From Escherichia coli (GTDB lineage Bacteria > Pseudomonadota > Gammaproteobacteria > Enterobacterales > Enterobacteriaceae), in NCBI RefSeq assembly GCF_044324875.1, contig NZ_CP172186.1: a stretch of DNA of 64,000 nucleotides. One strand, written 5' to 3'. Position 1 is the first letter of the stretch. Each line of letters starts with the position of its first letter. The notes beneath the pieces are model-generated. The model made no database searches and was not told the origin of the DNA. It saw only the letters and a program-made list of their open reading frames with translations. Below, in pieces: positions 1 to 10,381 of this stretch. The position numbers and the translations under genes were made by a program.

Positions 1-271
1 TTCCGCCATTTCTTCCTGAAGTGCGCTGATTCGCTCCTGTGCTTCCTGTATCTGCCGTTCGGTTTTTGCACGAAGTTTTTCTGAGCTTTTACCGAACTGC
101 ATACGTTGCAGTTTCGCAACCAGCGCCTTCAGCCGGTTGATTTCGGAAGCATAAGCCGCCACCCGCTGTGAGAGCAGGCGGTTGTATTCAGCCATCTGGC
201 GGATGGTGTCCTGTTGCGTCTGCAACAGTGCCCGCAGGCGGGCGTTCTCATGAGCAAGTGAGGTGTCCATA
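1..271 (-). CDS. tnpC: IS66-family transposase TnpC, N-terminal part only (continues past window start)
   Basis: Manual minus-strand translation from ATG at 271 gives MDTSLAHENARLRALLQTQQDTIRQMAEYNRLLSQRV..., an uninterrupted heptad-rich N-terminus typical of IS66 TnpC; sits directly downstream of tnpB as in IS66 operons. Confidence 0.7.
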
Positions 272-289
272 TCCTCACTTTACAACGGG

Positions 290-637
290 TTATATGCGGA
301 TTCCAGCGCGTTCCGTTCGTTTCGGGTGCTTCCAGTTGATACCTTCAAGAAGCATGGATAACTGAGCCGGAGTAAGGTGCACCTTGCCGTCACGGGTGAC
401 TGGCCAGACGAAGCGGCCCCGCTCCAGGCGTTTGGTGAAGAGGCACAGTCCGTCACTGTCAGCCCACAACACTTTTATCTGGTCACCCCGGCGTCCGCGG
501 AAGATGAACAGGTGTCCGGAGAACGGGTCATCCTTCAGGACGTTCTGAACTTTTGATGCCAGGCCGTTAAAGCCATTTCGCATATCGGTGATACCTGCAA
601 CCAGCCAGATACGCGAACCTGCAGGGAGAGATATCAT
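290..637 (-). CDS. tnpB: IS66-family accessory protein TnpB (Orf2)
   Basis: 115-aa ORF MISLPAGSRIWLVAGITDMRNGFNGLA... recognised as IS66 Orf2; stop/start overlap with upstream ORF. Confidence 0.9.
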   Translation of the reverse strand: MISLPAGSRIWLVAGITDMRNGFNGLASKVQNVLKDDPFSGHLFIFRGRRGDQIKVLWADSDGLCLFTKRLERGRFVWPVTRDGKVHLTPAQLSMLLEGINWKHPKRTERAGIRI

Positions 638-1314
638 CAGTGGCTGCTCCCTTTTATTTCGCGGATAAGTGTCTGTAATAACGCCGGCGTCAGTTTACCT
701 TTAAGCCTGAGAGTTCCGGCCGGCAGAACCAGCTCACAACACAGACTGTCGGACGGTGTATTTATCTGCTCTGGTTCCTGTGCGGGGGCCGGGATTTTAT
801 TATCCGGCTCCGGCGTTAACGTCACGGGAAGCAGTGCCGGCATATTTTTTCCGGAAGGCAGCAGGCCACCTTTCCGGTATTGATGGCGCCAGTTGAAGAG
901 CAGGTTATCGTTGATTCCGTTTTCCCGGGCGATCTGCGCCACACAGGCTCCGGGCTGCAGTGACTGCTCCACTAAGGCGATTTTAAACTCATAAGGGAAG
1001 TTGGGCCGCCGGGGACGTTTTTTTACCACGGGGGCTTCGGATATAACGGTGCTTTCAGGACGTACGACTGGTACCGTGGAAAATTGTCCGTAAAGGCAGG
1101 CATCAAGTTCCTGCTCCGACATGCCTGCGGGCAAAGGCCACGAAAGGCCAGCTCTCCGAAAGCGCACGAACATACTACAAACTGTTGATTTTGGTACACC
1201 CAGGCGACGCCCGGCCACAACCCGGGGTAAATGTTCTTCAAAGTGAAGACGTAAAGCTTCAGTGATCCAGGTCCGGTGTTTCATACGATAGTGTCCATTA
1301 AAAATGATGGACAT
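637..1314 (-). CDS. IS66-family Orf1 (TnpA)-like HTH protein; N-terminal ~95 aa resemble an IS21-family IstA N-terminus (possible in-frame fusion)
   Basis: C-terminal part (RRPNFPYEFKIALVEQS...AQIARENGINDNLLFNWRHQYRKG) has a transposase HTH pattern; N-terminal part (..GVPKSTVCSMFVRFRRAGLSWPLPAGMSEQELD) parallels the IstA N-terminus at 8063..9598 (..ASSLSWPLPADISHDTLE). Confidence 0.55.
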   Translation of the reverse strand: MSIIFNGHYRMKHRTWITEALRLHFEEHLPRVVAGRRLGVPKSTVCSMFVRFRRAGLSWPLPAGMSEQELDACLYGQFSTVPVVRPESTVISEAPVVKKRPRRPNFPYEFKIALVEQSLQPGACVAQIARENGINDNLLFNWRHQYRKGGLLPSGKNMPALLPVTLTPEPDNKIPAPAQEPEQINTPSDSLCCELVLPAGTLRLKGKLTPALLQTLIREIKGSSH

Positions 1315-1523
1315 TATTTTTGTAGAGCCGGAGGAAACAGACCAGACGGTTTAAATGAGCCGGTTACTTCCCGACAGACGACTCGGTGAAAAAAGTGGTG
1401 TGGCTGGCAATCCAGTCTGCGTCCCGGAAATGGACGATGCCGTTGAAGGACTGGCGAATGGCAATGAGCCGCTTTATTATCGAGTTCGGTGACCGCCTGG
1501 ACGGTCACTTCTGAGAAAGGCAT
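1314..1523 (-). CDS. hypothetical ORF, possibly non-coding remnant
   Basis: 69-aa ORF from track only; no recognisable motif. Confidence 0.15.
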   Translation of the reverse strand: MPFSEVTVQAVTELDNKAAHCHSPVLQRHRPFPGRRLDCQPHHFFHRVVCREVTGSFKPSGLFPPALQK

Positions 1524-1589
1524 TTACACAGAATCTTAAACAGGCTCAAGTGAAGCTAAGCACACAATCAATTCAGGTCTTTGACATCC

Positions 1590-1658
1590 TCCATCTTAAC
1601 TTCCAAAGGGTACTCCCGCCGACATAAGGCGGGAGTACCCTTTGGAAGTTAAGATGGA
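1590..1658. repeat. perfect 31-bp inverted repeat with 7-bp spacer (tccatcttaacttccaaagggtactcccgcc / gacataa / ggcgggagtaccctttggaagttaagatgga)
   Basis: Read directly; arms are exact reverse complements; related motif ttgacatcctcca occurs at about 1581 and 1759 and inverted at about 1782. Confidence 0.9.
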
Positions 1659-1801
1659 AAACCGACATAAGAACCCTCTGTTATCCTGAAACTCTTATAT
1701 TTATATAACTTGTGAAGGCGTTATGCACACAACCAATCTTCGCAAAGTCGGCGTCTCGTTGACATCCTCCACGCCCTGACGAATGTGGAGGAATGTCAAT
1801 A

Positions 1802-4075
1802 TTAATGTCCGGGCCACTCCTGTTGTTCAGTGACGTGATGTGATATTTCTTCTTTAGCTGTAGCCTCATTCTGGAGGTTTGAAGTAAATATACGCTCCAT
1901 TGTTTGTGCAACCGATGGTGGCATTTTTTCTTCCACACGTTCCTCTTCCGGACAACTCTGTGTGATATAGCATACGTGCCGTTCTTCCCGGGATGTGGTA
2001 TTGATGATGTGAACTGCCTTGTTCCACAGGCTGTTTCCCCGGGCAGAGATATCTGTATCATATTGCGGAAGCAGATCCAGCGATGTTTGTGTTTCGTTAA
2101 GCTGCTTCTGGAAGGTATCGATGATACGGTAAGGCTCTGTACGGTTTTTACGACGTTTACGGGATGGTTTTGCTGTCAGTACACCAATAATGCTGCTGAC
2201 ATGCTCCGGTGTGGGAAAACGGCGCTGCACTGTCCTGGGGACGAGACGGCGGAGACGCTCCAGGCGGGGGGCTTCAACGGAAATATAGCGGTTGATGACC
2301 ACCGGATCACTGTCGCAACTTTTCTCGCTGTCCGGAATATACACAGAGGCTGACGGCACCACATCCCCCTGGAAAACGGTAAAGAACTCACCGGCATTCA
2401 GTCTGATCAAATCCTGCACGTCGATTTTGCTTTCCATCTGGATGGTGATCTGGTTACCGTCCACCCAGGACTCACCCATCACACCATCGTGGCGCTGCAG
2501 GCTGCCCATTCTGGCCCGAGCCTCTTCACCGGCGGCATTTTTCACCGTTCTTGCCGTTTTGTCGTCACTGACAATGCGTCCGGCGAATTTGGTGCCGGCG
2601 TTCTGCATCAGTGTGGCGGTGTTGGTGGCGGAGGTCTGCCCTTCAATTCGCTCCTGATCCTGCGCCATCATTATCAGGGAAAACTCCAGTGAACGTACCT
2701 GGGTGGCCTCCACAGCAATGCGGTCTGTGTAGTAGGCACCGACTTCGTCAAGGATACAGATATAGGGGAAGCGGCCTTTGTATTTTTTTACTTCCAGGGT
2801 CTGTGCGTCTGTGCCTTCCAGGCGGTAGCCCAGGTCACGGGCGAGGATCATGCTCTGCTGGGTGATGAACATACGACCGAGTGCCGACGTGGTATGGGCT
2901 GATGTGTCCAGTGCGGGGATCATCACAATCAGAATTCGGTCGCTGTGGATACTGTCGCGAATATCGATGTCGCCGGCATCTGCCGCAAAGACGTCCCCGA
3001 AGGTTTCGGCAAAGGTTGTGAATGTTTCCGAGAACTGACCGGAGAGATAAGCATGCTGTTTACGGGGCTCCTCAGTCCAGGCTGACGGCGTTCTCACCAG
3101 TGACATATCGAATCCCGGAACGTCCTGCAGGTAATTTCTCAGTGGTGCGATGGCTTCTTCCGGCCACTGGTCATCAAGCCCACGGCAATAGAGTTTTGCC
3201 ATACCTTCCAGCGTCATATGCTCCCGTAACATCTGCAGGGACATGGTTTTTCTTTCCCGGACGCACCAGAATTTTGTGCCAAAGACCAGGGCTTTGTTCA
3301 TGGCTATCGCCCGTGACTGCCATTCACCCCCCTGAACGTTCTGGGGAAGCATGGACTGCATGGTTTCGGCGGTGAAGGCTTCGGTGCTGAATGCGAACGG
3401 GTTCCAGGTGTTTGACTGTGGGCGGGATTTTTCGCCGCTCTGAATGATTTCACTGCGGGATTTTCCGCCGTTCATGAAGTTGATGACCTCGATATCATCC
3501 TCCCGGCCAAAACGTCGGGAGAGATACCAGATTGTCCTCGTGGTATCGTTCTGTGCCTTTCCGTCAACAAAGGTAAAGCCTCTTCCCCAGCAGAGAGGGT
3601 TGAGCAGCCAGGCAAAGGTGGTTTCTGTTTTACCGCCACCGGTGGTGGAAAAAAATATGATATGCCGGGTGAGGTCATCCATGCTCAGCCAGAGCTCACG
3701 ACCGATATCGTTGATACGGCGGTAACCGACATAAAAAATCCCCCGTGCGGGGGATGTTTCATCTGCTTCATACTGAAACAGGGTGGGCCAGAAGCTGAAG
3801 AGGCTTCGCCTGACCTTTCTGTCCTGGGAGGGGTCATCAAGGCTGAGCGTCATGGGCATACGCAGGGGGCATCGCCAGCGTTGCAGCGTGAATATCACGG
3901 AGGTGACCAGGGTGAACAGCAGACAGACAGGAAGGGCCAGTGGCCATATCAGGGCCGTAATGATACTGCCGGCCAGACACAGACCAATGATGTTCAGGTT
4001 GTGCAGTGCATTCCACAGCGGGTTTCCCCAGGCCGTGCGGTGTATGAGGTCAGGATTAACGTGATGCTGGCTCAT
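1802..4075 (-). CDS. trbC: type IV coupling protein, DotL/IcmO-like (IncI1 TrbC-like)
   Basis: 757 aa; N-terminal TM segments; Walker A FFSTTGGGKTET; last gene of trbA-trbB-trbC arrangement. Confidence 0.8.
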   Translation of the reverse strand: MSQHHVNPDLIHRTAWGNPLWNALHNLNIIGLCLAGSIITALIWPLALPVCLLFTLVTSVIFTLQRWRCPLRMPMTLSLDDPSQDRKVRRSLFSFWPTLFQYEADETSPARGIFYVGYRRINDIGRELWLSMDDLTRHIIFFSTTGGGKTETTFAWLLNPLCWGRGFTFVDGKAQNDTTRTIWYLSRRFGREDDIEVINFMNGGKSRSEIIQSGEKSRPQSNTWNPFAFSTEAFTAETMQSMLPQNVQGGEWQSRAIAMNKALVFGTKFWCVRERKTMSLQMLREHMTLEGMAKLYCRGLDDQWPEEAIAPLRNYLQDVPGFDMSLVRTPSAWTEEPRKQHAYLSGQFSETFTTFAETFGDVFAADAGDIDIRDSIHSDRILIVMIPALDTSAHTTSALGRMFITQQSMILARDLGYRLEGTDAQTLEVKKYKGRFPYICILDEVGAYYTDRIAVEATQVRSLEFSLIMMAQDQERIEGQTSATNTATLMQNAGTKFAGRIVSDDKTARTVKNAAGEEARARMGSLQRHDGVMGESWVDGNQITIQMESKIDVQDLIRLNAGEFFTVFQGDVVPSASVYIPDSEKSCDSDPVVINRYISVEAPRLERLRRLVPRTVQRRFPTPEHVSSIIGVLTAKPSRKRRKNRTEPYRIIDTFQKQLNETQTSLDLLPQYDTDISARGNSLWNKAVHIINTTSREERHVCYITQSCPEEERVEEKMPPSVAQTMERIFTSNLQNEATAKEEISHHVTEQQEWPGH

Positions 4076-5174
4076 TGTGATTATCCTCGGTATCTGTGGC
4101 TTTCAGGAACAGGCTGACGGTAGTGGCGTCTTTCAGGATGCCGGACGGCAGGTGCCAGCCGGTATCGGATAACACCCATGGGGTACCGCCAAAACCGAAC
4201 TGGCGGAAAGCCTGGTTATTGACATCGATGGCAGCACGAGCAGCGGTCAGACACTTTTCATCCGGTGCAGCCGGTGCATCGCCGGTGGGTGCCATACCAC
4301 CGTCTGCGGAATACAGCTGATGCCATCCGGTCGCCCGTTTTTGTGCGTCCGGTTCACACAGCAGTGGCGCAGTCCGGTTTGTGCTGGCCTCTCCGCCGAT
4401 TACGGAGACCGGATAAATCACCACGCTGAATTCCCGGGCCAGTTGCTTAAGCGCGGGCTCCAGAAGACGGCAGTTGATGCATGCGGGGTCAAGGAAGGCG
4501 TAGAGTGTGCGTTCATGACCAGTGGAGAGATTAATGGTGAACATACCCCGGTCCGCGTTGCGTTTAAGTACAGTGGCCAGATTACGGCGGGCTTCAGCGA
4601 CCAGAGTATTTTTGTCTGCTGTTATCGCCGGGGTAGCGGATGTCTCCTGCATTTCCTGTGATGCCGGGTGAACGATTTCATTTTTCGTCTCTGACGGGGC
4701 TACTGACCGGACAATTTCCTTGTCGATGTGTAATGGTGCTGTTTCTGTTACGGATTCTGTGACAGGTACCCTGAGAGGGGAATCGCTGTCCGGTTTCAGT
4801 AAAATATATCCGGCTGTTACCGCTGTCAGAAGTGCCAGCACTAATCCTGCACCGTATATCAGCCCTCTCATGAAGCTGGTTTTCCGGGCAGGAAGTTCTG
4901 CATATGCCGCGCTCAGACAGCTGTCAATCGCGGAGAGCATTCTGCCGATGTGATGTCCGGGACGTTCAGTATCAACGGTATCAACAAGCAGTGTTTCGGT
5001 TATTTCACGAAAAGGGGTGCTGAAGGACAGGTGCATCAGCCTGTTATTACGGTTAATCAGTGCGCCCAGTTCTGTAACCGGCAGGATGGCAATAACCTCC
5101 TGACCACCGTCAGGGTACAGGGCGGTCAGGGACAGGTGTTTATTGTTCAGTGTTGCAGTGTAGCGGATGGTCAT
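4056..5174 (-). CDS. trbB: thioredoxin-fold protein with CxxC motif (TrbB-like)
   Basis: 372 aa; TM/signal-like N-terminal region; motif LDPACINCRLLEPA; position between trbA and trbC. Confidence 0.65.
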   Translation of the reverse strand: MTIRYTATLNNKHLSLTALYPDGGQEVIAILPVTELGALINRNNRLMHLSFSTPFREITETLLVDTVDTERPGHHIGRMLSAIDSCLSAAYAELPARKTSFMRGLIYGAGLVLALLTAVTAGYILLKPDSDSPLRVPVTESVTETAPLHIDKEIVRSVAPSETKNEIVHPASQEMQETSATPAITADKNTLVAEARRNLATVLKRNADRGMFTINLSTGHERTLYAFLDPACINCRLLEPALKQLAREFSVVIYPVSVIGGEASTNRTAPLLCEPDAQKRATGWHQLYSADGGMAPTGDAPAAPDEKCLTAARAAIDVNNQAFRQFGFGGTPWVLSDTGWHLPSGILKDATTVSLFLKATDTEDNHNEPASR

Positions 5175-6487
5175 TGTGCTTTTTCCTTGTCGGCGGGATG
5201 CTGTTTTTCGGTGGTTTCGGTGGTTTCGGTGGTTTCGGTGGTTTCGGTGGTTTCGGTGGTTTCGGTGGTTTCACCAGTGTCAGTGTCTTCGTCGTTATCA
5301 TGGCGGCGGGGTATCACGTCATCCGTGAGTGACCAGCGGGTCCTGATCTGACGTTTACGATCGCGATCTGGCTGAGGTTCGTCCCATATCAGGCCCAGCC
5401 CCAGCATGTCCCGTCGAAGCCCTTCAATGGCCTCTTCCACACAGGGTTCCGGGCAGGGGAGGCCGAGACGGCTGGCTTCATTTTCTGCCCGGGCAACGGC
5501 CACCACGCCGGCCCCTTCGATGAAGCCTTTTGTGGTGTTTGCCCGGTGAAGGGCATAGAAGAGCGTCCGGTCAACGCCCTTGAGCCACAGCCAGTTCGGA
5601 GGCGTCAGGCGCAAATCATGTGCGTAAAGCCAGACCAGACCGCTGCGAACGTAACGGTGCTGCCTGAGCCACTTTTGTGCGCCTTCTGTTTTGATGACCC
5701 GGATAAAGGCGTTTCTGGCCAGTGAATACACCGGCGTGCTGAAACGCCCCTGGTCCCGTTTACTTTTGAGCCTGCAGGAGAGATTGAGGTTGTTCATCAG
5801 GGCTACCGCTGCTTTCCGGTCACCGAGGAAGAACTGCAGGCCAAAGATGGCAAAGAGCGCTTTTTCATGTGGGGCCATGTCTTTCCAGCTGGTCAGTGGT
5901 TGCCCCAGTTGCGCCATGAAGCACTGGCGTGTGGACGCAACATCGAGCTGCATGTTGCGGATAAGGTTGTTCTGCTCCACAAAGGCTTCGGGGGTTAGTG
6001 CGACACGGCGCTCGGGACGTTTTTGTCCGTGGAAGAGTCTGTTGTTGTCTCCGTCAGCCAGAACGGGGGCGATCGCCGGTGACAGAGCTGAAAAAATATG
6101 GGGCAGTGTGTGGATATTCAGTGGCCTGCGGGTAAAACGGGGCTGGGCCGGATGGTGAAACCACATCCACAGAAAGCCGAATGTCATGGGAAGCAGAATC
6201 AGCCAGAGGATCCCCACTGTCCGGGACATAACATCCAGCCACTGGCTGAAAGTGATGGTTGCCGCGTTGTTAGCAGTGATGGCCAGCAGGTTGTAACGGG
6301 GGACGGCAAAGTTGTGAAAGGGCCCCCAGTCAATCATGCCCCACAGTGTGTGCAGGATCAGGCAGGAGGCGAAGACGATTTCAGGTAAAAAGCGCCAGAT
6401 GATAATCGCAAAGAGCAGGCATATGGCACCGACGATATACCATATAGCCATTGGATCTTCGGCGGCAGACGTCTGTTGGTAAGACAC
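5171..6487 (-). CDS. trbA: inner-membrane protein (TrbA-like, DotM/IcmP-like) with C-terminal (ETT)7 repeat tail
   Basis: 438 aa; several hydrophobic helices; C-terminus TGETTETTETTETTETTETTETTEKQ encoded by the 9-bp tandem repeat. Confidence 0.65.
   Translation of the reverse strand: MSYQQTSAAEDPMAIWYIVGAICLLFAIIIWRFLPEIVFASCLILHTLWGMIDWGPFHNFAVPRYNLLAITANNAATITFSQWLDVMSRTVGILWLILLPMTFGFLWMWFHHPAQPRFTRRPLNIHTLPHIFSALSPAIAPVLADGDNNRLFHGQKRPERRVALTPEAFVEQNNLIRNMQLDVASTRQCFMAQLGQPLTSWKDMAPHEKALFAIFGLQFFLGDRKAAVALMNNLNLSCRLKSKRDQGRFSTPVYSLARNAFIRVIKTEGAQKWLRQHRYVRSGLVWLYAHDLRLTPPNWLWLKGVDRTLFYALHRANTTKGFIEGAGVVAVARAENEASRLGLPCPEPCVEEAIEGLRRDMLGLGLIWDEPQPDRDRKRQIRTRWSLTDDVIPRRHDNDEDTDTGETTETTETTETTETTETTETTEKQHPADKEKAQ
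5207..5269. repeat. 7 perfect tandem copies of 9-bp unit ttcggtggt inside trbA
   Basis: Read directly from sequence; in-frame, encodes (ETT)n on minus strand. Confidence 0.95.
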
Positions 6488-7120: not shown

Positions 7121-7290
7121 TTTTACACCTTTCTGTTATTCTGCTTATTACGACCAGCAGACAGCAAATATTAAAAATAACGCGGCGGTAATGCGTATTC
7201 CGCTCTATTCGATCACGGATTGGCATCGAAGTCCGATCAGCGATTCGCATCCATTCGATCAACCGGGAACTTAACTTTTTCTACCGCTTT

Positions 7291-8046
7291 TTAACGCGTT
7301 TTTTCGCTGCTTTCCACTACCGGGGGATTTTTCCTCAGTGACTCTCCCTGAAGGACCACTCGGTGTGAGTTATGTACCAGTCTGTCCAGGATGGCATCTG
7401 CTGTTGTTGGGTTCTCCATCAGACCATGCCATTTATCTACCGGGAACTGGCTTACCACTATCGTGCTGCTTTGTCCGTAACGATCCTCTATGAGCTCCAG
7501 AAGGTCATTACACTGGGCGTTACTTAACTGTTCCAGCCCCAGATCGTCCAGGATTAGAACCTGTATTTTTTGCAACTGTTTCAGATATTTCAGCCAGCTG
7601 CCATCAACACGTCCCTGAGCCAGTTGTTCCAGTAATCGCCCGGTTCTACAGTACCGGACGCTGTGTTTCTGTCGACATGCCTGTTCGCCCAGCGCATTGG
7701 CTATCCAGCTCTTGCCACATCCTGTCGGACCGGTTATCAGCAGGTTTTTCCTGTGGGTTATGTAGTGGCCGTTCAGCAGTTCTCTCATCTGTTCAGCCCG
7801 CAGACCTCTTGAGGCCGGATAGCGCAGCCCTTCCGGTGTTGCCTGGTATTTCAGGCCGGCATTTTTTCTCAACCGTGCCACACGGCTGTTTTCCCTGCTC
7901 AGAAGCTCGTCATCAACCAGCAGCGTCAGCCTTTCCTCGAACGACAGTTCGTCGTAGGTCTGAGGCGTTTCCCGCTGCCGTATCAGGCTCCCGGCCATCG
8001 CCGGGAGTTTCAGTTGGGTCAGTTTGTTTAACAGGTTATCACTCAT
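7291..8046 (-). CDS. istB: IS21-family helper ATPase IstB
   Basis: Walker A GPTGCGKSW, Walker B VLILDDLG; start taken at MSDNLLNKL (track ORF 7291..8289 begins further upstream). Confidence 0.85.
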   Translation of the reverse strand: MSDNLLNKLTQLKLPAMAGSLIRQRETPQTYDELSFEERLTLLVDDELLSRENSRVARLRKNAGLKYQATPEGLRYPASRGLRAEQMRELLNGHYITHRKNLLITGPTGCGKSWIANALGEQACRQKHSVRYCRTGRLLEQLAQGRVDGSWLKYLKQLQKIQVLILDDLGLEQLSNAQCNDLLELIEDRYGQSSTIVVSQFPVDKWHGLMENPTTADAILDRLVHNSHRVVLQGESLRKNPPVVESSEKTR

Positions 8047-8062
8047 ACTGTTGTTCCTTCTG

Positions 8063-9598
8063 TCAGTGGTAGTAGCCCGGACCACGCAGGTTTTCATGCT
8101 CTGAAGCATATGCCGGATGTTGTTCGCCCTGGCGGGATAATGGAAGCTCCAGGTTCTCCCGATGGTGACGCAGCAGATTGTCGATAAAGCGTCTGTCAGG
8201 GGCGTTATAGTGCAGGGCAACGTAACAGGCCTTTTCCAGCCGTTCCGGGCCGTATTTTTTCTGAAGTGCCAGCAGCCCCAGAACTGCACGATAAGCCAGT
8301 TCCGGATGGGGTTTTGCCTTCAGCATGGATTCAACCACCCGGCCTGTGGACGGGCCCGTACGTTTTCCCTGCTCGATCAGGCGTTCCGGTGTCCATGTCC
8401 CGTGCTGCCGGTGGCGCTCTGGCATGTGAAGCGGATTGGTTGTGTGTTTATATTCATGTGTGCTGCGCGGATGTTGCGCCACACACTGCCCCTTGTGCCA
8501 GAGCTGTACCACCGACTGCCCCGCCTTCAGTGACAGACGCTGACCGACCAGTTCGTGTGGAACGGAGTACCAGTGACGGGCATATTCAACGTGGTAGTCA
8601 GGGCCAACCTTCACAGCTTTGTATTCCGTGTATTCATAAGGTGCCAGAGGCAGCGGAGAGAGTGCTGGCGCATCCAGTATGCGGAAGCGTTCTGCACGGG
8701 TTTGATTGCCGTACCCCTTCATTGGCCGGTTATTCATGTCTGTCAGTAACTCCCTAAGGCGCGCATTCAGCGCCCTGAGCGTGTGGAAGGTTTCATTACG
8801 GATGCGGGCAAGAAGCCATCGTTCAACGATGAGGACGCCGTTTTCTGCTTTTGGTTTATCTTTAGGTTTGCGTGGTCGGGCCGGGATGATAACCGTGCCA
8901 TAGTGCTCAGCCAGTGCCTGATAACTGTCGTTGATGACAGGCTCATATCGATCGGCCTTTTTCACTGCGCTTCTGAGGTTATCGGGGATGAGCAGCTTCG
9001 GTACGCCGCCCAGGAAGGTCAGGCAACGGCTGTGGGCATTTAACCATGACATCATGTCCTGACCTTCGCACGCTTCAACGTAGGTATAGTTGGACGCCCC
9101 CATTACGGCCACGAAGATTGCCACGCGGCGTATCTCACCGGTGTCCGGATTAATAACAGGAACCGTAGGACCACAGAAGTCGATAAAAAGCTTTTCGCCG
9201 GCACGATGCTCCTGGCGCATGGAGAGACGTCGCGTTTTTTTCCACTCCCGGTAGCAACGGCAGAAGTGCGAGTATCCCATCGCTTTGTTACCCGCCTGTG
9301 CCTTGTATTCCATCCACAACAGTTGCCGCGTCACACCTGGTTTTCTCATTTCCGTATCGAAGTACAACATGTCAGGCATTACAAGCTCTGATGCAAAGGT
9401 GTCTTTGGGCGGAAAAATGAGTTTCTCCAGCGTGTCATGGGATATATCAGCAGGTAATGGCCATGACAGAGAAGAGGCTTTGAAGCGGGCAAGAACCTCA
9501 AAAACGGTTGAGGCGCTGATGTGTAACGTCAGTCCGATACAACGGTTAGTCAGCTTCTTGTCGAACTTGAGCTGAAGGATCTTAAAACAGGTTTCCAT
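8063..9598 (-). CDS. istA: IS21-family transposase IstA
   Basis: N-terminal HTH, DDE-type core; start taken at METCFKILQ with RBS (track ORF extends to 9709). Confidence 0.85.
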   Translation of the reverse strand: METCFKILQLKFDKKLTNRCIGLTLHISASTVFEVLARFKASSLSWPLPADISHDTLEKLIFPPKDTFASELVMPDMLYFDTEMRKPGVTRQLLWMEYKAQAGNKAMGYSHFCRCYREWKKTRRLSMRQEHRAGEKLFIDFCGPTVPVINPDTGEIRRVAIFVAVMGASNYTYVEACEGQDMMSWLNAHSRCLTFLGGVPKLLIPDNLRSAVKKADRYEPVINDSYQALAEHYGTVIIPARPRKPKDKPKAENGVLIVERWLLARIRNETFHTLRALNARLRELLTDMNNRPMKGYGNQTRAERFRILDAPALSPLPLAPYEYTEYKAVKVGPDYHVEYARHWYSVPHELVGQRLSLKAGQSVVQLWHKGQCVAQHPRSTHEYKHTTNPLHMPERHRQHGTWTPERLIEQGKRTGPSTGRVVESMLKAKPHPELAYRAVLGLLALQKKYGPERLEKACYVALHYNAPDRRFIDNLLRHHRENLELPLSRQGEQHPAYASEHENLRGPGYYH

Positions 9599-9702
9599 AG
9601 TGCTCCTGGATTTTCTCTTTCTGGACATTGACGTCTCCACTGGTTTAAACACGGCAATGGAGACTGTGGTGAAAAGAGTTAATTCCCGGAGTGACTGGCA
9701 GG

Positions 9703-9830
9703 ATGCCAATCAATGATCGGAAGCATGCCAAATCGTGATCGATTGTGATGCCAAACTGTGATCGGAGATGGATGCCAAATCATGATCGATTCGAATGCCA
9801 AACTGCGATCGATTCAGATGCCATTTTGCA
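9703..9830. repeat. direct repeats ATGCCAAA(T/C)NNTGATCG (at least 5 copies) at IS21-family left terminus
   Basis: Read directly; spacing about 22-27 bp; typical multi-site termini of IS21-family elements. Confidence 0.8.
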
Positions 9831-9913: not shown

Positions 9914-10381
9914 TTATTTCTTATTCTGTTTTCTCCAGGTCCATGGTGGTACCGGATTTTTATCTGCCCATAATCCCCGCTTCAGGGCGCGGGCATCACG
10001 CTGGAGCGGCGGGAGAGTATAGTCATTATTGTAGTCCGGGTACACCCAGGCAGCGCCGTTACGGACCTGCCAGCGATTTGCTTCTGTGCCGTCAGCGGTA
10101 TAGACCCGGCCGAGAATACGGCCATACCTGTCTGTCTGCGCGTATTGCACGGTTACGGGCTTTCCGGCCACCAGGTCCTTCAGCTGAGTGGCTGACCAGC
10201 GTCCAAAGGGCTGTTTCTTTTCCGGTGCATCAATATTAGCCAGACGGACCCTGACAGGCTTTTTGTCCTGTAATATTTCCAGCGTATCACCATCAAGAAC
10301 GCGGATGACGTGCCCCTGAATCTGTGCGGCACAGAGAGAAGCGGAAAAAATAATGGTGAGTGAAAAGATATATTTTATCAT
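9914..10381 (-). CDS. nuc: secreted thermonuclease (SNase/micrococcal nuclease fold)
   Basis: 155 aa; signal peptide; motif VIRVLDGDTLEI...RLANIDAPE. Confidence 0.8.
   Translation of the reverse strand: MIKYIFSLTIIFSASLCAAQIQGHVIRVLDGDTLEILQDKKPVRVRLANIDAPEKKQPFGRWSATQLKDLVAGKPVTVQYAQTDRYGRILGRVYTADGTEANRWQVRNGAAWVYPDYNNDYTLPPLQRDARALKRGLWADKNPVPPWTWRKQNKK

Follow-up and report, generated by a model that had tools for sequence, protein, structure and literature searches.

The IstA-like N-terminus of the IS66-family protein TnpA in an ISCro1 copy from Escherichia coli

The window analyzed here, a stretch of 64,000 nucleotides of Escherichia coli DNA (assembly GCF_044324875.1, contig NZ_CP172186.1), contains, close to its left end, a gene that raises the question of whether two insertion sequences have been fused into one reading frame. 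Directly upstream of an IS66 tnpB gene, on the minus strand at 637..1314, lies an open reading frame of 225 amino acids that begins like the N-terminus of the IS21 protein IstA and continues like an IS66 Orf1. A preliminary description of the sequence considered that either this IS66 member has an unusually extended Orf1, or it had landed in frame in a pre-existing IS21 copy, the rest of which would lie to the left of the window. The analysis shows that the IstA-like module is an ancient component shared by the two families, and not the result of a recent insertion into IS21. The 225-codon frame is almost certainly the native tnpA of ISCro1, a multicopy IS66-family insertion sequence that is common in Enterobacteriaceae. 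The word hybrid fits the domain composition of its product, not the route by which it originated.

Gene content and ends of the ISCro1 copy

The frame is annotated as tnpA (WP_001339397.1), in agreement with the ORF call and with the family model NF038385. It is followed on the same strand by tnpB (IS66 Orf2, 115 amino acids, WP_000624622.1) at 290..637, which was recognized by PF05717 (E = 4.7e-40) and NF033819 (E = 5.2e-38); the tnpA stop and the tnpB start overlap by one base, in the TGATG at 639..635. The gene of the IS66 DDE transposase, tnpC, starts at 270, nineteen bases beyond tnpB, and its first 90 codons (1..270, minus strand), identified by translation and by a match to LZ_Tnp_IS66, run out of the window leftward. 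Since the window begins within tnpC, it is the rest of this gene that lies to the left, in the place where the preliminary description had expected the remainder of an IS21 copy. The TnpC of an identical full copy has 523 amino acids and comprises the LZ, zf-IS66 and DDE_Tnp_IS66 domains and a C-terminal domain (matches to PF03050, E = 2.5e-103, PF13005, PF13007 and PF13817). tnpA, tnpB and tnpC are consecutive on one strand, and the whole trio is present in three full chromosomal copies of the element (L001 to L003). RefSeq names the three products IS66-like TnpA, TnpB and "IS66-like element ISCro1 family transposase"; the name ISCro1 used here is taken from this RefSeq/PGAP annotation.

The exact ends of ISCro1 were set by comparing the three full copies. 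These share a unit of 2699 bp that has GTAAGCGACTCG at its tnpC side and ...GAGCCGGTTAC at its tnpA side. Positions 1..1367 of the window align to positions 2865..4231 of L001 with 0 mismatches (100% identity), which places the tnpA-proximal end of the element at window position 1367. The copy in the window is therefore partial (1..1367, minus strand; positions 1-1367 of the 2699 of the IS): it is truncated at the left boundary of the window, and what remains in it is the terminal inverted repeat of the tnpA side (IRL), both tnpA and tnpB, and the first part of tnpC. In hundreds of plasmids, the matches to ISCro1 end at ~1369-1372.

Comparison of the inverted repeats on the full copy located the IRL, GTAACCGGCTCATTTAAACCGTCTG, at 1343..1367 on the minus strand. 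It reads GTAACCGGCTC... from 1367 downward, and the element thus ends 53 bp upstream of the annotated tnpA ATG. The IRL pairs imperfectly with the IRR, GTAAGCGACTCGTCAGAACCGTATT; this second repeat is beyond the window and was read on the full copies, where it starts GTAAGCGACTC.... Both ends are of the IS66 type GTAA(C/G)CG and form imperfect inverted repeats, and the terminal block TAA(G/C)CG...CGTCTG is kept among related elements.

Perfect 8-bp duplications (ACATAAAA, AAAGCCAG and CGATGTTA) bound the three independent full copies. Two of these interrupt phage genes, one for an S49 peptidase and one for a terminase, and the third adjoins an IS5-family remnant, with the istA of ISEc10 about 220 bp past the tnpC-side end, opposite tnpA. 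No IS21 sequence was found at the junctions of the three copies. The terminal repeats and the target duplication of this IS66 element could thus both be located, as the preliminary description had proposed, the former with the IRL ending at 1367 and the latter on the full copies. The other end of the window copy falls outside the window, and the duplication expected for it is TTCCCGAC.

These observations decide on the possibility that an IS66 element with a short Orf1 recently landed in frame in an istA gene and that the 225-codon frame is an artefact of the junction. What speaks for it is that residues 21-75 of TnpA and the N-terminus of the IstA encoded in the window share 36% identity, and that an IS21-family (ISSso4-like) element is indeed present at ~7250-9800. 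Such an event is, however, contradicted by the IS66-type end at 1367, which lies upstream of the whole frame, by the identical frame within 2699-bp units that sit in phage genes between 8-bp duplications, by the flank at 1368, which is IS1414 and not IS21, and by the presence of tnpC to the left. Moreover, the identity to IstA proteins (31-46%) is far too low for a fresh junction, and one curated family model covers both halves of the protein. Because the IS66 ends enclose the entire frame, which moves along with them, its reading as an IS66/istA junction is excluded, and we regard a recent nested insertion as having practically no probability.

With tnpA (637..1314) as the query, matches were obtained in 1993 of 5426 complete E. 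coli genomes, at up to 23 places per genome. The query 1..1700, which spans IS1414 and backbone sequence as well, matched 2764 plasmids. Both ISCro1 and the curated TnpA family behind this frame were already known, and the region is an ordinary ISCro1 copy. The biological weight of this result is small; its outcome is the correction of a misreading at the level of annotation.

The junction with IS1414 and the plasmid surroundings

The arrangement of one IS within another that is actually present at this locus brings ISCro1 up against internal sequence of IS1414 rather than of IS21. IS1414 is a member of the IS256 family that carries astA/EAST1. Its 3' fragment occupies 1368..1553 on the plus strand and consists of the last 48 codons of the transposase gene, ending at 1514, and the end of IS1414. 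From 1368 the translation reads FPTDDSVKKVVWLAIQSASRKW...DGHF-stop, the C-terminus of an IS256-family transposase, and the frame FPTDDSVKK...DGHF belongs to a stretch annotated as IS1414 in plasmids that are 100% identical. Across the position of the junction, uninterrupted IS1414 reads ...AAAGTG followed by TTCCCGAC, and the 100%-identical sequences that annotate it as IS1414 are poultry E. coli plasmids. Other copies of IS1414 cease to match at ~1553-1572. Neither IS21-type end repeats nor istB were found beside the tnpA frame.

The exact junction between ISCro1 and IS1414 (1367/1368) was absent from PLSDB and from the 5426 complete E. coli genomes. Since it is unique among the plasmids and complete genomes searched, this junction could serve as a lineage marker for the plasmid of the window. 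Related plasmids carry ISCro1 elsewhere in the region, pLH10-b-1-A at a distance of ~4 kb and pTB-nb2 in the interval from IS1414 to trbC, which indicates that ISCro1 moved repeatedly in this plasmid lineage. The arrangement in the window is either a fresh simple insertion or an IS-mediated adjacent deletion of ~4 kb. If it is a simple insertion, ~1332 bp more of ISCro1 would lie to the left of the window, ending ...CGAGTCGCTTAC (plus strand), with TTCCCGAC before it.

The backbone sequence that separates the end of IS1414 from the 3' end of trbC contains an inverted repeat (1590-1620 and 1628-1658) whose two 31-nt arms match perfectly around a loop of 7 nt. It is 100% conserved in related poultry E. 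coli plasmids, and may function as a terminator or in recombination. trbC itself (1802..4075, minus strand) belongs to the plasmid backbone, which at 1802..6430 and 9914..10381 is made up of conjugation genes of the I-complex type (trbC, a gene of the DsbC family and trbA) and a thermonuclease gene. Because this backbone is as in pTB-nb2 and pLH10-b-1-A, the window most likely derives from a chicken plasmid of the IncK2/Z type.

The IS21-family element of the window is intact and lies at ~7200-9815, between trbA and the thermonuclease gene. It is ISSso4-like and contains istB, present among the listed ORFs at 7291..8289, and istA at 8063..9598/9709. Arrays of GATGCCAA-N-TGATCG are found at both of its ends (7204-7254 and 9702-9812), as is typical of multiple IstA-binding sites. 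A search for similarity between the ends of ISCro1 and these IS21 end repeats found none.

Domains, start codon, and relatives of TnpA

NF038385, the curated NCBIfam equivalog IS66_access_TnpA ("IS66-like element accessory protein TnpA"), has 190 positions, and residues 13-206 of TnpA match its positions 1-189 with 295.8 bits, the cutoff being 150. Because this model matches end to end, the extended N-terminus belongs to a recognized family of IS66 TnpA proteins. This bears out the first of the two readings in the preliminary description: the extended Orf1 is WP_001339397.1 of ISCro1, a reference IS66 element that carries an IstA-like N-terminus natively, which is the very case that the description had set against its own proposal of a junction.

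The protein comprises an IstA-like helix-turn-helix (HTH) module at residues ~17-75 (1090..1266, minus strand), defined by homology to IstA N-termini and predicted with a pLDDT of 87-94, and a second HTH at residues 102-159 (838..1011, minus strand) that matches HTH_Tnp_1 (PF01527, E = 8.6e-15). The second HTH is common to short IS66 TnpA proteins and the OrfA of IS3. NF047595, the model of the short IS66 TnpA, matches residues 102-219 with 89.5 bits (cutoff 74), and the continuation of the frame into an HTH of the IS66 Orf1 type was correctly recognized from the start. The C-terminus (~190-222; 649..747, minus strand) is predicted to be a β-hairpin and a helix, and its motif CELVLPAGTLRL.G.LTP.LL is conserved in the alignment.

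An AlphaFold2 model built on an alignment of 13 sequences contains two confident helical modules, at residues 16-75 and 108-147 (pLDDT ~90), the N-terminal one with helices at 16-25, 31-38, 42-54 and 67-75. Residues 78-105 form a low-confidence, disordered linker, and the C-terminal elements (strands at 192-197 and 200-205, helix at 210-222) are predicted with a pLDDT of ~71-76. When this model was compared with the PDB by Foldseek, no structure reached E ≤ 0.001; the double-homeodomain protein DUX4 came closest (E = 0.043), and the IstA complexes 8q4d and 8b4h followed with E = 0.36 and a probability of ~0.15. Profile searches against solved structures returned weak, generic HTH matches to DeoR (0.0022), SorC (0.0046) and Cgl2762 (0.0096). 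Since the fold search gave no significant match, it is homology of sequence that identifies the N-terminal module as IstA-like.

The true start of tnpA is probably the ATG at 1284..1282 (codon 11), which would give a protein of 215 amino acids and make the RefSeq start 10 codons too long. This is suggested by the conservation of this ATG, by the homologues and NF038385, which start at residues 11-13 of TnpA, by the low confidence of residues 1-11 (pLDDT <50), and by the divergent long-form element L006, where the frame upstream of the conserved start runs into a TAA. That the RefSeq start of such a common protein is probably overlong is a practically useful point.

The annotated ATG (1314) sits directly beside the left arm of a palindrome, TGTCCAT-N8-ATGGACA (1292..1313, minus strand), which became apparent when the 5' ends of four elements were aligned. 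These elements, whose TnpA proteins are 41-45% identical, all keep GTGTCCA(T)-N8-15-(A)TGGACAC, and the palindrome ends 5-7 nt before the conserved ATG in these divergent elements; the other sites are at 3962-3986 in L006, ~3471-3498 in L009 and ~53-76 in L007. There is one site per element, and a second copy of the half-sites was sought near the other IS end but was not found. As RNA, the palindrome folds modestly (z of -1.2 to -2.2). It may be an operator, or a translational fold-back hairpin that sequesters the ribosome-binding site. A literature search found no description of this palindrome.

Long-form TnpA proteins are present in other elements as well. An exhaustive HMMER search of 1.84 billion representatives returned 36 matches at E ≤ 1e-30; among these are full-length relatives of 205-224 amino acids that are 41-56% identical and align from query residues 11-13 to ~223, and the short-form TnpA proteins (~100-140 amino acids) align to residues ~99-223 only. 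Among the four divergent long forms located on contigs, TnpB_IS66 follows directly in all four and the IS66 DDE TnpC comes next in three, the fourth contig stopping just past tnpB. IS66-type termini (TAAGCG/TAACCG) were found upstream of the divergent long tnpA genes where the contig extends that far. The persistence of the architecture in divergent elements indicates that the TnpA with two HTH domains is old and conserved in a subgroup of the IS66 family.

In Enterobacter chromosomes (L011 to L013, 4001-4593), a protein of 94 amino acids is annotated as a "winged helix-turn-helix transcriptional regulator" (P0237). It is encoded by the N-terminal half of a long-form tnpA that is frameshifted and decayed; the HTH_Tnp_1 half of this gene forms an overlapping ORF of 106 amino acids, and no tnpB or tnpC follows the split gene. 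Stand-alone regulators of 94 amino acids were considered and rejected in favor of such frameshifted remnants, and the annotation looks like a database error.

A misplaced start codon could also mean that the frame of ISCro1 is an artefact in which a short tnpA has been joined to a separate, small regulator gene lying upstream of it. Codons 1 to 10 do indeed have a spurious look, with homologues starting from residue 11 and the annotated ATG adjoining the palindrome, and separate ORFs of 94 and 106 amino acids do exist in Enterobacter. From residue 11 on, however, the frame is uninterrupted and is kept as a single unit in elements of down to 41% identity, the Enterobacter pair is an overlapping frameshifted remnant that lacks tnpB and tnpC, and NF038385 covers both halves. 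A fusion of this kind is consequently very improbable.

Relation to IS21 IstA and to other IS66 proteins

The resemblance to IstA noted in the preliminary description is real homology of sequence, limited to ~60 residues. Residues 21-75 of TnpA align with residues 8-62 of the window IstA (8063..9598) over 55 amino acids (36% identity, E = 4e-9, BLASTP), and the shared WPLP motif was confirmed; the extent, put at ~95 residues, shrinks to ~60 (about 17-75). The window IstA itself matches positions 7-71 of NF038385 (E = 9.3e-15). On plasmids, a tblastn search with residues 11-80 matched the istA of IS21-family elements at 36-46% identity, among them ISFK1 (Bradyrhizobium), ISIde2 (Alicycliphilus), a Mycetohabitans element and enterobacterial IS21 members. 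The N-termini of IstA and the N-terminal module of TnpA are collinear and share the motif ..RF/AR..G..WPLP... The IS21 transposase model NF033546 gave no match to the 225-codon frame at E ≤ 0.1, and no rve domain was found in it, so that only the HTH of ~60 residues is common to the two proteins. Protein homologue searches with the N-terminal 104 residues or with a profile of the module yielded, with few exceptions, proteins that are short or partial (≤182 amino acids) and did not reveal relatives of IstA length, which the tblastn search did; no account of an IstA-like domain in an IS66 TnpA was found in a literature search.

How the module came to be shared is a separate question. The ancestor of the long TnpA proteins may have gained the HTH of an IstA by an old IS66/IS21 recombination or nested insertion that then became fixed, which we consider possible, if unlikely on balance. 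In its favor, IstA N-termini from alpha-, beta- and gammaproteobacteria are collinear with the ISCro1 module at 31-40% identity, about as close as other long TnpA proteins are to it (29-48%), and short-form IS66 TnpA proteins (~113-140 amino acids) lack the module. On the other hand, ~60 residues cannot reveal the direction or the mechanism of a transfer, intermediate forms did not turn up, and the repeats at the IS21 ends (GATGCCAA..TGATCG) are unlike the ISCro1 ends or the palindrome. A common pool of HTH domains like region 4 of sigma-70 may also be the source, the module of TnpA and the N-terminus of IstA both giving weak, sub-threshold matches to Sigma70_r4 and HTH_23 in nearly the same register. 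Given that IstA is about as near to ISCro1 TnpA as the other long TnpA proteins are, an ancient exchange and a shared HTH pool are both compatible with the data.

Whatever its source, the module is part of a four-part long TnpA, which consists of the IstA-like HTH, a flexible linker, HTH_Tnp_1, a domain common to all IS66 TnpA proteins, and a small conserved C-terminal domain, and which characterizes the IS66 subgroup to which ISCro1 belongs. In genetic work on IS679, tnpA, tnpB and tnpC were reportedly all needed for transposition, which generated 8-bp duplications. By its domains, the TnpA of ISCro1 would be a noncatalytic accessory protein that binds DNA through two HTHs, and its translation is probably coupled to that of tnpB through the TGATG overlap. 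It most likely recognizes DNA specific to the IS, be it the ends or the palindrome next to the tnpA start, and would in this way assist or regulate the transposition catalyzed by TnpC. A more speculative and rather doubtful proposal is that a mobile HTH was exchanged between IS66 and IS21 in the distant past and that the module may have been repurposed to bind the palindrome at the start of tnpA. If this is true, binding would give autoregulation or control of translation, unlike IstA, which binds the ends of its element. The IstA-like module and the palindrome together offer a concrete handle for the study of the role of TnpA in IS66 elements.

ISCro1 was first named in Citrobacter rodentium, where it has expanded to 24 copies (PMC3072379). 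The copy in the window has the same tnpA, tnpB and TnpC N-terminus, with no sequence difference; it is merely incomplete, and differs in that it adjoins the interior of IS1414. Compared with the short-form IS66 TnpA (NF047595, e.g., of the ISRel24 type, ~113 amino acids), the TnpA of ISCro1 has the same HTH_Tnp_1, the same C-terminal domain and the same place before tnpB, whereas the short form is devoid of the N-terminal extension of ~90 residues that is formed by the IstA-like HTH and the linker. The IstA proteins of IS21 elements (ISSso4-like, ISFK1, ISIde2) carry the same module of ~60 residues, ..LRL.F...L....I...LGVS.STV....R.R..G..WPLP.., at their extreme N-terminus. In IstA, however, what comes after this module is a catalytic core of the rve/DDE type with a Mu-transposase C-terminal domain, whereas TnpA continues with HTH_Tnp_1 and has no catalytic domain.
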